From the IMG/VR virus record IMGVR_UViG_3300045988_166195, positions 1 to 64,000 of that record: a stretch of DNA of 64,000 nucleotides; one strand, written 5' to 3'. The position numbers were made by a program, and so were the translations under genes. This DNA comes from a virus. Below the pieces are notes generated by a model that was not told the DNA's origin, did not search any database, and saw only the letters and a program-made list of their open reading frames with translations. This document shows, piece after piece, positions 2,121 to 41,692 of the stretch (its first letter is position 1; every line of letters starts with the position of its first letter).

Positions 2121-2234
2121 CAGGGTTTAGAGAGGATTAGGTGGAGGGGTTAGGAGAGAGGAAAGGGAAGAGTAGGCGAGATTAGAGAGGCTAGGTGTGT
2201 TTAGCTGCGCAGGTGAACACTCCTATCAGAGTGA

Positions 2235-2375
2235 TCAGCCCACGAAGTAAGCGATGGTGTTGGCGGTCAGGAAGATCGCAAACCACACGACGAGCGTGAC
2301 ACCGAACAACCTGAGGCCAGGGGTGGTGTCAGCGTAGATCCACTCATAGAGGTTGGTGAGCTTGTTCTTCAGCAT
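2235..2375 (-). CDS. Small hydrophobic membrane protein (about 46 aa; MLKNKLTNLYEW...)
   Basis: ORF-track frame 2235..2429. The internal ATG at 2375 is preceded by AAAGGA. The upstream annotated start overlaps the conserved intergenic element. One predicted TM helix. Confidence 0.4.
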   Translation of the reverse strand: MLKNKLTNLYEWIYADTTPGLRLFGVTLVVWFAIFLTANTIAYFVG

Positions 2376-2419
2376 GGTTCGGTTCCTTTGCAGATCAGGA
2401 GAGAGGTAGAGAGATAGAG

Positions 2420-2458
2420 TTTCTATCAATTCAGGATTCGGGACATCGATAGATGTCC
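2420..2458. promoter_or_regulatory. Copy 1 of a conserved ~40-bp element (tttctatcaattcaggattcggg) ending in the palindrome GGACATCGATAGATGTCC; divergent intergenic region
   Basis: Near-identical sequence recurs at 6053-6090 and 12848-12885. The palindrome read directly. Confidence 0.5.
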
Positions 2459-2548
2459 TGTTTCCAAGCGATCGAGGTCACAAGAGAGGTATTCTTATTG
2501 TGGTGTCAAGCCGAGCAACAAGAATCTGAGAATCAAGGAGGATCAAGC

Positions 2549-38584: not shown

Positions 38585-38620
38585 ACAACGCCCCGTAGCT
38601 TTTGCTGCGGGGCGTTGTCT
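38585..38620. terminator. Hairpin gacaacgccccgtagc/gctgcggggcgttgtc
   Basis: Perfect 16-bp inverted repeat followed by a T-rich stretch, between convergent genes. Confidence 0.6.
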
Positions 38621-38631
38621 TCCGATGGGAA

Positions 38632-39438
38632 TTAGCGCTTGATCGGGCTAAAGGATCCATTGGAGTAGTCGATCGTGTATCCGTTGGCTGTGTTGAAGAC
38701 GATGACATGCTGGGACAATGAGCGATCGCATGATTCAATGTCAATGGTGACGATTGATGGGATTGGACTATTTCCGTCGTATTTGGGTTTTGCCGCGTAG
38801 TAGAGCGGGCATTTGTCGTGAGACGGATCATCGAGATATTGCTGCGCAAGTGTTTCTACGTACGCCATACCGCCGTCATGAGCTGTGGTCGCACCGACGT
38901 TTTGGGCGAGTGTTCCAGTGATGAGGTTTTCCTTCACAGGTTTACCACCAAGCGAATCAGGGAGAAGATATGAGCGGTTCCAGAACTCGCCGTTGTTGGA
39001 GTCGATGGTGACTTTTTCGTTGTGACTGGGCCACCCAGCTGGATCGATTTCAATGGGCTGAGGGTCGCGTTCTTTGGCTTCGGCACGAGTGTGTGTCGAC
39101 AACAGTCCTACGGCGCACGTAGGGCGTGATTGGTCATCGAGAGGGCAATATCCGATGTTCCCCATGTCGTCGGCAACGTTGTGGACATCTTGCGCTGGAC
39201 CGTCGATCACGTAGTAGTTGGTGGGGGCTGGGACGGCTGTACGGTATGTCTGTTCGATGGCCGTTTTCTCGTGGAAGTGCCAGATGTGGTATCCGAAAGC
39301 TCCGGTGGTCACGATGAGAATTGTCGTGAGAATGAACGGCATGCTCTTTTCGATGAACGGTTTGATGTTTTTAAGATTGGTGATCACGAAAACTCCTTTT
39401 GGTGGTTGTGGCTGATGTGGGGCAAGATTGTGTGCCAT
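38632..39438 (-). CDS. Membrane-anchored nuclease-like paralog 3 (retains WNRSY motif)
   Basis: Shares the 'GPAQ', 'TCAVGLLS', 'EFWNRSYLLPDSLGGKPVKENLITGT' and 'DKCPLYYAAKP' blocks with 33521 and 34330. Start uncertain (MAHNLAPHQ or MPFIL). Confidence 0.5.
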   Translation of the reverse strand: MAHNLAPHQPQPPKGVFVITNLKNIKPFIEKSMPFILTTILIVTTGAFGYHIWHFHEKTAIEQTYRTAVPAPTNYYVIDGPAQDVHNVADDMGNIGYCPLDDQSRPTCAVGLLSTHTRAEAKERDPQPIEIDPAGWPSHNEKVTIDSNNGEFWNRSYLLPDSLGGKPVKENLITGTLAQNVGATTAHDGGMAYVETLAQQYLDDPSHDKCPLYYAAKPKYDGNSPIPSIVTIDIESCDRSLSQHVIVFNTANGYTIDYSNGSFSPIKR

Positions 39439-39532
39439 AACTCTATGGTATGCTGGTTTACCAGAATAATCAATGAGCCATGGGAGGGAAGATAGGGTTG
39501 CACTACCCTTGTACCGATGATAGAATTGCCTC

Positions 39533-41692
39533 ATGAATGAAGCAAAACTATTTTCCGAGGGTAGCGCGACTGACCTGGTGTGCCGGGGTTGGTCGCGTGA
39601 GCGTGTCATTGATGCCACCGGCATCGATCCTGGCTATCACAACTCTTCGATGAAGACTGAGTTGAAGGGCGTTGATCGTCATACATATAAGATCGAGCAT
39701 GTGCGTCAACGTGTTGCACAGGAGACTGTGCGAGACGTGCTGGAACGCTATGCTGCGTGCGATCTGGATAAAGCAGGTCTGTTGGAGCAGCTTGGGCTGC
39801 ATGACGCGGTGAATCTGATCAAGCTTGCTGATCTGTTCACAGGTCTGGGTCTTGGCGAAGAGTTCCGTGACGCCGATCGTCGGTCTCGTCGTGGTGTCAT
39901 GCGAGCAGGCATGATCGCTCAGCATGGTACAGACAACCCGTTCAAGCTTGATGAGTACCAGGAGAAGGCTGCCCAGACAAGGGAAGATCGTTACGGCGCT
40001 CGGTACACGTTGGCCGAGGGTTCGGTATTTGCTGACGAGGCTCGGAAGAAAGCCAAAACGACTCGTTATTCTCGCGAGAGATATACACGTGTTTTGACCT
40101 CGGATGAGATCGCACAGCGTAGCGCACGTGCGGTAAAAACTTCACGATCGCGTTATGGCGTTGACCATTCCAGTCAAACTCCTGATGCTCGTGCGGCTCA
40201 GAGGCAACGGGCTGAGCAGTATGGGAAGCAATGGGCTGAGAAAGCTCGTCAAACGAGTATCGAAAGGTATGGCTTTCCTTCATGGACTATGCGTGAGGAA
40301 TCTCGTCGAGAGATCTCCAAACGCATGTCAAGCGCACGTGTGCAACAGCGGTCGTTGGCGACGAAGAAACGTAATGCCACATTGGCTACCTTTTCATCAG
40401 AGGACGCGCTTCATGAGCTGCTCGTTGAGTATGCGGATCAGCTCGGTATGACCGTGGTGCGACAGTATCGTGATGAGGAACGTTATCCCTTTGCTGTTGA
40501 TTTTTATATCCCTGAGCGCGATCTGTTCATCGAACTCAATGGTTCGTGGTCGCATGGCGGGCACTGGCATGAATCCGATCGCGAGATGGATCAGAAGACA
40601 GTGCAAACCTGGCGCAAGAAGGGTAAGAAGTCCCAGTATTACCTCAATGCGCTTGGGACGTGGACTGAGCGAGACGTGCGTAAGCGTGAAGCGGCTCGCG
40701 ACGCACAGTTGAATTACGTGACGCTGTGGGATGGCTCTGAGGCTTTGGCCGATGCTCATCTGTGGTTTGCTCTCGGGGCTCCTGATGGCCACGATTGGGA
40801 ACGTGAGTACTCCTGGCTCGATCTACCTGAATCTCTGATCGATCTCAGGGAAGGTTTGGATGAGCAGGCGCAGCAGTGGGCGGATATTGATGTCGCGAAC
40901 GCTGGTTCGAGGCAGATCTCCTGGCTTGCCCGTAGCGGAACGTGGGAGACGTTCTATGCTCGTGAGTTGCAGATGTGGGAAACCGACGAGGTTCATCATC
41001 GTAAGTGGGGCCGTCTGCGTGCACGTCTGCTCGCTAATCGGTTGCATTATCTCGGCAAGCTTCCTGAGTCAGCTCTGGAGGTTGTGCGAGGGCTGGCCAT
41101 CAGCGGTGAGATCCGTTCGTACTCGACGTTCGTCAACACGGCTATGCTGGCTGTTCTCGATCGGTATGAGCCGACGCATATGTATGACCCGTGTAGTGGG
41201 TGGGGTGAGCGTATGCTCACCTGTGCTCAGCGTGGTGTGACGTACACAGGCACAGACATCTCTGAAGCGGTGGTGACGGCTCACCAGAGTCTTATTGACC
41301 GTCTGGGTTTGACGAATGTCAGTGTGACGCTTGGGGACAGCGCTACTCGCGATATGCGAGGTGGCTCGCATGAGATGGTTCTGACCTGCCCACCGTATGG
41401 TGATACGGAGATCTACACTTCTCAGGGTGCTGAGAATCTGGATGACGAGGCGTTCTTGGAATGGTGGAAGCAGGTTGTTTCCATGAGCGTTGCTCCGTCG
41501 ACGCGTGTTTTCGCCTTCCAGATCAGTGAGAAATGGCGCAAGCGTATGTCGGCAGTGGCTCAGAGCGTATTGGGTGAGCAGTGGCACCTGGTAGATGAGA
41601 TTGATGCGTCGGTATCGCGTAATCATTTCCAGCGTGCACGGTCGCGTGAGAAGCATCGTGGTGAAACGATGGTGGTCTTTGAACGACTCTGA
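39533..41692 (+). CDS. Multidomain orphan DNA methyltransferase: N-terminal tandem ~25-30-aa 'xRYG' repeats, central DUF559/Vsr-like endonuclease fold, C-terminal N6A/N4C methyltransferase (motif I DPCSGWG, motif IV CPPY)
   Basis: 'YDPCSGWGERML' and 'LTCPPYGD' read directly. 'YPFAVDFYIPERDLFIELNGSWSHG' is DUF559-like. At least five RYG-type repeats. Confidence 0.65.
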   Translation: MNEAKLFSEGSATDLVCRGWSRERVIDATGIDPGYHNSSMKTELKGVDRHTYKIEHVRQRVAQETVRDVLERYAACDLDKAGLLEQLGLHDAVNLIKLADLFTGLGLGEEFRDADRRSRRGVMRAGMIAQHGTDNPFKLDEYQEKAAQTREDRYGARYTLAEGSVFADEARKKAKTTRYSRERYTRVLTSDEIAQRSARAVKTSRSRYGVDHSSQTPDARAAQRQRAEQYGKQWAEKARQTSIERYGFPSWTMREESRREISKRMSSARVQQRSLATKKRNATLATFSSEDALHELLVEYADQLGMTVVRQYRDEERYPFAVDFYIPERDLFIELNGSWSHGGHWHESDREMDQKTVQTWRKKGKKSQYYLNALGTWTERDVRKREAARDAQLNYVTLWDGSEALADAHLWFALGAPDGHDWEREYSWLDLPESLIDLREGLDEQAQQWADIDVANAGSRQISWLARSGTWETFYARELQMWETDEVHHRKWGRLRARLLANRLHYLGKLPESALEVVRGLAISGEIRSYSTFVNTAMLAVLDRYEPTHMYDPCSGWGERMLTCAQRGVTYTGTDISEAVVTAHQSLIDRLGLTNVSVTLGDSATRDMRGGSHEMVLTCPPYGDTEIYTSQGAENLDDEAFLEWWKQVVSMSVAPSTRVFAFQISEKWRKRMSAVAQSVLGEQWHLVDEIDASVSRNHFQRARSREKHRGETMVVFERL

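Follow-up and report, generated by a model that had tools for sequence, protein, structure and literature searches.

We analyzed the interval 2200-39630 of a 64,000-nucleotide window of DNA (positions 1 to 64,000 of the IMG/VR virus record IMGVR_UViG_3300045988_166195), and found that the element to which it belongs is a new lineage of conjugative plasmid, of a known kind and with unusual content. On balance we favor an explanation, taken as a whole, in which a circular plasmid of ~121 kb, equipped with a MobL relaxase and a type IV secretion system (T4SS) of the Gram-positive type, has an ~80-kb arm of non-transfer genes, and the interval makes up roughly half of this arm. In this explanation the interval is composite, with maintenance and orphan genes, no bounded island and no canonical leading region.

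A first-pass annotation had described a unidirectional 37-kb island of about 50 genes encoding proteins of 40-330 aa, nearly all on the minus strand, and had likened it to the leading regions of conjugative plasmids. Our own calls, made with a self-trained codon model, gave 63 open reading frames (ORFs), and five of the proteins were larger than the range given (877, 551, 440, 402 and 352 aa). The strand bias held by count (54 minus-strand against 9 plus-strand ORFs), but 27% of the coding bases were on the plus strand, including a 6.7-kb block at 15.4-22.1 kb that encodes an adhesin, a dNMP kinase, an actin-like partition ATPase and a sortase. The kinase had been listed with the minus-strand array; the gene is real but sits within this plus-strand block. 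Nor was the island bounded, as the minus-strand array spans ~80 kb and extends past the window, and the left edge at 2200 is arbitrary.

The plasmid and its relatives

Two assemblies of 120,982 bp (the JGI metagenome contig that holds the window, by exact protein matches) and 121,126 bp were 99.99% identical and differed in their start points, as is expected of a circular molecule of ~121 kb, and the gene order closed into a circle in a walk along a sister contig in IMG/VR. Among the relatives, more than 20 in number and 104-130 kb long, none showed chromosomal flanks. The relaxase (58087-60414) matched Pfam MobL at 1e-62 over profile positions 2-376 of 383, and Pfam also identified a topoisomerase III and a Phage_lysozyme2 cell-wall hydrolase on the transfer side of the window. 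The T4SS backbone mentioned in the first-pass annotation was observed to the right of the island. Parts of the mating channel within the window included this hydrolase, a 1102-aa protein with seven transmembrane (TM) segments and small 2-TM proteins. The type IV coupling protein (T4CP), with TraG-D_C, TrwB_AAD_bind and T4SS-DNA_transf domains, is encoded just beyond the window, and the sister-contig walk placed a 480-aa protein after the T4CP and an 1853-aa protein. Pfam recognized no VirB4-type ATPase, and no Rep protein was identified.

The closest MobL proteins were those of plasmids of Streptomyces, Gordonia and Rhodococcus. Compared with Streptomyces sp. NBC_01454 unnamed1 and the plasmids of Gordonia KTR9 and Rhodococcus fascians, MobL was 38-47% identical and the gene order was syntenic, running from a lysozyme gene to mobL, a small ORF, a giant AAA ATPase, the T4CP and a ~1850-aa protein. 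In contrast, the non-transfer flanks bore no relation to each other, those plasmids showed none of the orphan families, tRNAs or nucleases, and GC content is far lower in the present one. The giant ATPase is a 1257-aa AAA+/ClpB-like protein encoded directly 3' of mobL (window 61260-~65033; sister-contig locus L003 10710-14483), and since it has a LAGLIDADG_3 domain it probably contains an intein. Minus-strand ORFs listed over 61260-64000 are spurious, one of them with a ratio of nonsynonymous to synonymous substitution rates (dN/dS) >1. The 1853-aa protein ends the transfer operon at ~72.5-78 kb (L011 14879-20440) and has Rpb2_6 and Rpb1_2 double-psi barrel domains, in which it appears to resemble a fused single-chain, YonO-like RNA polymerase that might act as a primase or early transcriptase. 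Its syntenic counterpart on a Streptomyces plasmid is an ORF of 1848 aa.

The locus was also found at 95% identity in a metagenome-assembled genome (MAG) labeled 'uncultured Actinomyces', and we infer a human-oral, Actinomyces-like actinobacterium as the host. The human oral metagenome label belongs to the sample of one sister contig, not to the window's own sample. When both halves of the window were compared by megablast with phage (50,697) and plasmid (72,556) records, the only match was tRNA-sized, and we found no account of the present plasmid lineage in the literature. T4SS conjugation in Actinobacteria has been little studied, and the establishment and counter-defense genes of Gram-positive plasmids are largely unknown.

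Beyond the transfer operon the genes switch to the minus strand and continue on it round to the window's left edge. Minus-strand genes outside the window encode MazF, a UvrD-like helicase, a ClpB-like ATPase, MoxR-VWA, RarA, SNF2, a DNA-polymerase-like protein and RecJ. The DNA-polymerase-like protein (1059 aa, phrog_1252) was located at L068 4125-7304 of the sister contigs, the other loci of this gene set being L047 and L034. An iteron-like cluster was observed at L004 9100-9740, ~580 nt left of the window start and reaching window position 55, where 1.1 kb of non-coding DNA precedes the GH16 gene. Its units are of 58 nt (x2.3, 98% match), 21 nt (x2.6) and 11 nt (x2.3), and it is a candidate replication origin or centromere.

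Origin of transfer, polarity and strand composition

Leading regions adjoin the origin of transfer (oriT) on the flank opposite the relaxase gene, with anti-defense enrichment reported within the first ~30 ORFs, and their genes are oriented to be read from the transferred strand (T-strand), co-directionally with the relaxase gene, which enters last (PMC11541004). Immediately upstream of mobL we observed an inverted repeat, CAGGGGCGG-N13-CCGCCCCTG, in which flanking bases lengthen each arm to 11 nt. The repeat was identical in every clade of the lineage, even where its flanks were unalignable, and folded as a DNA hairpin at -19.7 kcal/mol (z -4.6); Streptomyces relatives have a GC-rich hairpin at the same position upstream of mobL. 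We consider this repeat the best candidate oriT on these sequence features. The adjoining gene (56854-57945, plus strand), syntenic with mobL in Streptomyces, encodes a very acidic protein of 363 aa (pI 4.1, 22% Asp+Glu), perhaps a DNA mimic or an accessory factor of the relaxosome. A second element, a 20-nt inverted repeat at 50,554-50,595 in a gap of the transfer operon (100% conserved within flanks ~70% identical; z -6.4 as DNA), may represent an alternative oriT, or else a terminator or regulatory site.

From the candidate to the nearest island gene, whose end is at 39387, the distance is 18.5 kb and 12 transfer-operon ORFs, and with oriT at this site only the right-hand ~17 island ORFs would fall inside the 30-ORF span. 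The 54 minus-strand ORFs of the 63 are antiparallel to mobL. Because the oriT candidate abuts mobL 18.5 kb off and the genes run antiparallel to mobL, the interval is probably not a canonical leading region, and neither the position nor the orientation implied by the first-pass annotation was borne out. By analogy with the polarity of pLS20, the MobL prototype of Bacillus subtilis (PMC5313138), entry would begin with the transfer genes (57.9 -> 39.5 kb) and proceed to the island; the T-strand would then carry the island genes in sense orientation, and they would be unreadable from the incoming strand. Transfer in the reverse direction would suit the orientation, but would place the island 65-102 kb after the nick, so that it enters late. 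Whichever polarity applies, the island falls short of a leading region in position or in orientation, the two properties that define one, and this rule of position and orientation relative to oriT needs testing before it is used on MobL-type plasmids. The present plasmid is like pLS20 in having MobL within a long one-directional operon and a GC-rich inverted repeat upstream of the relaxase gene. It is unlike pLS20 in its distant relaxase (tblastn ~24% identity to staphylococcal MobL), its actinobacterial host, its lack of small ribbon-helix-helix (RHH) auxiliary genes between the repeat and mobL, its size (twice as large), and its phage-like replication genes, tRNAs and Lsr2.

Promoter elements were also relevant to whether the island is read from a single strand. 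The larger intergenic gaps contained a terminator hairpin, a second short hairpin, TGATAGAA and a CT-rich leader, and the TGATAGAA(T) extended -10 was found before island operons, the dNMP kinase and the transfer operon, where it lies ~7 nt before the ATG of the first gene, a leaderless-type start. Because the same extended -10 occurs at the dNMP kinase and the transfer operon, we read the TGATAGAA modules as ordinary double-strand promoters for the host polymerase, and a special promoter for a plasmid RNA polymerase was ruled out on the same grounds. The hairpin sequences of the module also differ between copies, in the manner of terminators; the module had been considered as an operator as well. 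With respect to single-strand (Frpo/ssi-type) promoters, only short hairpins followed by a standard extended -10 were seen. No hairpin-promoter family specific to the minus-strand arm was found.

Six 6-bp palindromes (CTCGAG, GACGTC, CTGCAG, GCCGGC, TCCGGA, AGGCCT) were absent from the 64 kb, where 8-15 of each were expected, and the plasmid is on that account certainly under restriction pressure. GGCGCC, CGGCCG and ACGCGT were strongly depleted in the window. This avoidance was equal in the island and the transfer backbone.

We judge it unlikely that the interval is a canonical leading-region anti-defense island, which would be the first DNA to enter and be read from the single strand, its families being new anti-restriction, anti-CRISPR or SOS inhibitors. 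It resembles the islands described by Samuel et al. 2024 (PMC11541004) in its ssb gene (22180-22755), its toxin-antitoxin-like genes, its many small same-strand ORFs and the restriction pressure on the plasmid, and many of its proteins are acidic while its orphans diverge fast and as a mosaic. In addition to the position and orientation above, it differs from those islands in its promoters, which look like ordinary double-strand ones, in a same-strand array of ~80 kb against ~30 ORFs, and in palindrome avoidance that is no stronger than in the backbone. No Pfam family of ArdA, KlcA/ArdB, ArdC, PsiB, Acr or orphan methyltransferases was found in any island ORF, small ORFs included, and the only methyltransferase-like match, a weak one, fell in the first transfer-operon gene; ArdA, KlcA and PsiB had already been noted as not evident in the first-pass annotation.

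The top strand was G-rich and mostly T-rich in every stretch examined (window 1-64000 and sister-contig loci L011, L034, L047, L068 and L004; ~116 of ~121 kb), whatever the direction of the genes, with a local dip at the GH16 gene (1-2000) as the sole exception. An attempt to locate a replication origin from GC skew failed, as the sign of the skew never changes. We take this uniform skew as a sign of replication that is unidirectional or rolling-circle-like, or of mutations imprinted on the transferred strand. Third-position GC skew of the coding strand was -0.26 in island genes and +0.14 in transfer genes. The GC content of the island had been described as lower than that of the T4SS backbone, and it was (53.3% vs 55.6% overall), but the difference is small and patchy: GC is 48.4% in the block at 27.6-35.6 kb and reaches 57.6-59.3% in the adhesin genes.

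The strand skew bears on a further reading, in which the top strand is transferred and the whole ~80-kb minus arm is readable while single-stranded, perhaps by the plasmid's fused two-barrel RNA polymerase, with the transfer operon silent until the plasmid is double-stranded. We hold such an early program to be slightly less probable again than a canonical leading region. The positive GC and mostly negative AT skew over ~116 kb agree with it, as do the third-position values, the placement of all non-transfer genes save a few inserts on the minus strand, and the Rpb2_6/Rpb1_2 protein that closes the transfer operon. Yet with oriT at mobL the interval would enter 65-102 kb after the nick, and the polarity would be opposite to that of pLS20 (PMC5313138). 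Unidirectional or rolling-circle-like replication explains the skew equally well, a DNA-polymerase-like protein being encoded, and the transfer operon uses the same extended -10 as the arm, which has no hairpin promoter of its own. The fuller version of this reading, with families A, C, D and E, the 'LPxGTVI' domain and the widespread family B (all described below) as new counter-defense proteins of Gram-positive conjugative elements, is improbable.

Orphan genes and their possible role

Approximately 40 island proteins were without a Pfam or PHROG family, and these orphans were mostly predicted to be cytoplasmic and acidic. Against sister plasmids their dN/dS was 0.09-0.6 and mostly 0.1-0.4, vs about 0.04-0.13 for T4SS genes; the exceptions were a spurious antisense ORF and two or three ORFs that are very short and have values near 1. 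We conclude that the orphans are real genes, held under purifying selection, and that they evolve several-fold (about four times) faster than the T4SS and transfer genes. Between the window and a 130-kb sister plasmid the orphans shared 41-95% amino acid identity, while the adjacent adhesin (96%), kinase, actin-like protein and sortase were 92-98% identical. Four copies of family B were observed in this 130-kb sister, and a 105-kb sister was without the nucleases, the second family E gene and the DUF7487 gene. Divergence of the orphans follows a mosaic pattern, and both copy number and presence differ between sister plasmids.

The six paralog families named A to F in the first-pass annotation were all significant by BLASTP, including family A (4688/14260; 41% identity, 2e-18) and the three nucleases of family F (33521/34330/38632), whose members were 39-49% identical. 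For family C we found 21 homologs, for family D 11 cluster representatives and for family E 163 homologs, and these three families are essentially confined to the present plasmid lineage. Among 20 island proteins compared with PHROGs, only family B (phrog_7971, unknown function) and one marginal match were returned, and sequence searches of the PDB with family B, family E and the 352-aa, 719-aa and PDC-S61-like proteins gave no meaningful match. A possible ~60-aa beta-rich domain, 'LPxGTVI ... W ... D..L ... VII', was observed across seven small proteins (11601-11807, 22815-23132, 25067-25330, 29861-30085, 32311-32562 and the family E C-termini). In a profile search for this domain the real matches outranked 20x shuffled decoys, with marginal E-values.

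Family B was the most widespread, with at least 7,968 homologs (7,968 of 8,000 scored candidates were significant), none of them with a Pfam domain. Its invariant motifs (MGLDMYL, YWRKANAIH, DDC, FFFGSTDYD and a C-terminal ASW) look enzyme-like, with the invariant residues D4, YWRK, H74, DDC and DYD suggestive of a metal-dependent enzyme, and its structural model was confident and matched no solved fold in a structure search. Homologs were found on plasmids of Enterococcus, Lactococcus, Macrococcus and Bacillus and on SSU5-like phage-plasmids, always among small unnamed ORFs. On the conjugative Enterococcus faecalis plasmid pEK4S, of the enterococcal pheromone type, the homolog lies amid such ORFs and toxin-antitoxin genes, ~7 kb from an ssb-thermonuclease pair, much as in the present plasmid. 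In contrast to the present plasmid, pEK4S belongs to a host of another phylum, has a MOBP relaxase, and is without Lsr2, tRNAs and paralog expansion. With thousands of homologs, a novel-looking confident fold and no annotation, family B merits experimental attention.

Taken together, we infer that the orphan families behave as conflict genes, that is, host-interaction factors of counter-defense or establishment, and we regard an anti-defense role as a plausible hypothesis. Dozens of variants of 104-130 kb are present in metagenomes, the related contigs numbering >100, and in these variants the orphan arrays vary while the backbone is fixed, a contrast that has exposed anti-defense genes elsewhere. 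The establishment part of the first-pass reading was supported by the SSB, Lsr2, partition ATPase, Panacea pair, tRNAs and the fast, variable orphans; the leading-region part was not. In the mechanism we propose, the plasmid would enter and become double-stranded, after which host sigma-A RNA polymerase would transcribe the island from the modules of hairpin and extended -10 TGATAGAA. Lsr2 would coat and silence the plasmid's own comparatively AT-rich DNA, and the SSB, partition ATPase and Panacea-SLOG pair would stabilize the plasmid. The tRNAs may serve codons that are commoner in the island than in transfer genes, the adhesins and dedicated sortase may promote cell contact, and the variable orphan arrays may modulate host factors, with defense systems as the likeliest targets.

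Several points weigh against this interpretation of the interval. The faster evolution of the orphans could reflect relaxed constraint and not conflict. The searches gave no functional signal for any orphan family. Structural models cover two of the six paralog families; neither of these two proved to be an ordinary phage or housekeeping protein, an outcome that would have counted against the first-pass reading, but the models also gave no hint of function. The oriT was placed by conservation alone and the host by metagenomic binning only. Finally, the G- and T-richness of the top strand over the whole plasmid could mean that this is the strand transferred, in which case the island genes could be read from the incoming DNA.

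The interval might instead be cargo for defense or competition (nucleases, toxin-antitoxin genes, PDC-S61, adhesins) that serves the host cell and not plasmid entry. We give this little credence, although the PDC-S61 match (1e-116), the three membrane-anchored nucleases, the Panacea-SLOG pair, and the LPXTG adhesins with their sortase are in its favor. PADLOC matched just 2 of 40 proteins, PDC-S61/RTasPDDEXK (2549-3400) and one mad2-like match, and not the several clustered systems of an anti-phage defense island. Most of the island consists of small cytoplasmic orphans without defense-system architecture, and the nucleases are dispensable in a sister plasmid.

Very improbable is an early or accessory region of a phage or phage-plasmid, which the tRNAs, dNMP kinase, SSB, DNA-polymerase-like protein, RecJ, SNF2 and UvrD helicases, the family B homologs in SSU5-like phage-plasmids, and the cataloging of 23 relatives as viral genomes (UViGs) in IMG/VR and of one homolog as a 'Herelleviridae sp.' MAG protein in GenBank would suggest, but which is opposed by the complete relaxase, T4CP and T4SS set, by zero nucleotide matches in the phage records, and by the absence of any capsid, portal, terminase or tail family of Pfam or PHROG in the ORFs scanned over the full circle (with small ORFs included only inside the window). 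The viral filing is probably due to the phage-like set of replication and repair genes, and correcting this label would change the reading of oral 'virome' data.

Gene content and transcription signals

Coordinates of the observed features are listed in Table 1. The SSB, Lsr2, dNMP kinase and DUF4406 proteins named in the first-pass annotation were each identified by Pfam, its Panacea/SLOG pair was recovered as SocA_Panacea adjoining YAcAr, and ARAGORN and Rfam agreed on its five tRNAs (Tyr, Pro, Leu-CAA, Lys and Leu-TAG).

Table 1. Coordinates, strand and supporting evidence for features of the 64,000-nucleotide window.
Feature	Position	Strand	Evidence or remark
GH16 glycoside hydrolase	319-2019	+	window's left edge
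283-aa PD-(D/E)xK-like protein	2549-3400	+	PADLOC PDC-S61 1e-116 (2-251 of 253 positions); RTasPDDEXK 1.8e-11
~26 small orphans including families A (4688, 14260), B (9675, 12331, 12976) and C (10278, 10936)	3515-14985	-	
Family B reference member, 177 aa	12976-13509	-	
877-aa surface adhesin, signal peptide, AgI_II_C2	15363-17996	+	Pfam 6.5e-7; N-terminal hydrophobic segment
dNMP kinase	18156-18869	+	Pfam DNMK 3.9e-14; extended -10 TGATAGAAT at 18104
145-aa acidic protein, 440-aa actin-like ATPase, 402-aa sortase	19050-22052	+	ALP_N (ParM-type) 4e-6; Sortase 1.8e-7
SSB	22180-22755	-	Pfam SSB 9.1e-8; hairpin and extended -10 module 22799-22831
DUF4406 protein	23792-24118	-	Pfam 4.8e-6
tRNA-Tyr(GTA), tRNA-Pro(TGG), tRNA-Leu(CAA)	24183-24932	-	ARAGORN, Rfam
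Lsr2-type xenogeneic silencer	25343-25792	-	Pfam Lsr2 3e-22; Lsr2_DNA-bd 1e-9
551-aa LPXTG-anchored surface protein	25847-27502	-	Gram_pos_anchor; signal and anchor hydrophobic segments
Small orphans including families D (28931, 32593) and E (30599, 31205)	27643-33505	-	lowest GC, 48%
tRNA-Lys(TTT), tRNA-Leu(TAG)	30122-30287	-	ARAGORN, Rfam
Two family F DNA/RNA non-specific endonucleases (first gene 33521-34315)	33521-35121	-	Endonuclea_NS_2 8e-13; N-terminal membrane anchors (TM segments)
Panacea gene, then YAcAr SLOG gene	36480-36977, 35912-36394	-	SocA_Panacea 5.7e-12; YAcAr 1.9e-7
114-aa RHH protein and 352-aa low-complexity/coiled-coil protein	37157-38579	+	weak Arc/HicB/NikA-like Pfam matches
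Third family F nuclease, last minus-strand gene	38632-39387	-	BLASTP 49% to 33521; Pfam
Divergent junction	39388-39532		extended -10 TGATAGAAT at 39518
Transfer operon	39533-61114	+	Pfam; synteny with Streptomyces plasmid mobL loci; also encodes membrane and ATPase-sized T4SS proteins
719-aa DUF7487/methyltransferase-like protein, first transfer-operon gene	39533-41692	+	weak methyltransferase-like match
Best oriT candidate, inverted repeat	57966-58000		invariance, DNA folding

Both domains of the Lsr2 protein, for dimerization and for DNA binding, scored above the Pfam cut-offs. Plasmid 'stealth' silencers include the H-NS-like Sfh of R27, and phage- and plasmid-borne Lsr2 proteins are also known. 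The present plasmid would be like these elements as an AT-richer transferred element with its own xenogeneic silencer, here a two-domain Lsr2, and a stealth effect is putative; the plasmid is about 54% GC, and its AT-richness is relative to the presumed host. The Panacea and SLOG genes are on the same strand, adjoining, and retained in sister plasmids, and may form a toxin-antitoxin-like pair with a PanA-like antitoxin domain. The gene pair for the RHH and 352-aa proteins is also kept in sister plasmids. A second relaxosome was considered for this pair and ruled out, the 352-aa protein being coiled-coil and low-complexity, with no HUH motif and no matches.

The 877-aa adhesin is a candidate PrgB-like aggregation substance. 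At the left end of the island, the PDC-S61-like protein had no Pfam match; RTasPDDEXK, its second PADLOC match, is a model of the DRT-associated PD-(D/E)xK nuclease. Four of the five tRNAs read A- or G-ending codons (AAA, CTA, TTG, CCA), and AAA made up 20% of Lys codons in the island vs 10% in transfer genes, with CTA at 7% vs 3% of Leu codons.

Strong AGGAGG-type Shine-Dalgarno sites and individual hairpin terminators had been reported for the genes of the island. A perfect AGGAGG was observed at five of the 63 ORFs, with a 5-mer at 13 and only a 4-mer core at 27. Hairpin terminators marked operon ends and not single genes, with a strong one at 22074-22112 after the sortase block, and terminator-like sites were in modest excess over shuffled sequence (23 vs 14.4 +/- 3.9 and 24 vs 16.6 +/- 4.2, about two standard deviations). 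Four ACATC-N3-4-GATGT palindromes were observed at 2443, 12871, 22820 and 24984 (0.28 expected), just upstream of promoter-like elements that include those of the ssb and tRNA cluster operons, and these sites could be a common operator or duplicated terminator modules. The GH16 and 551-aa LPXTG proteins had a ~100-aa domain in common (39% identity over 103 aa by BLASTP), which suggests a shared cell-surface module.

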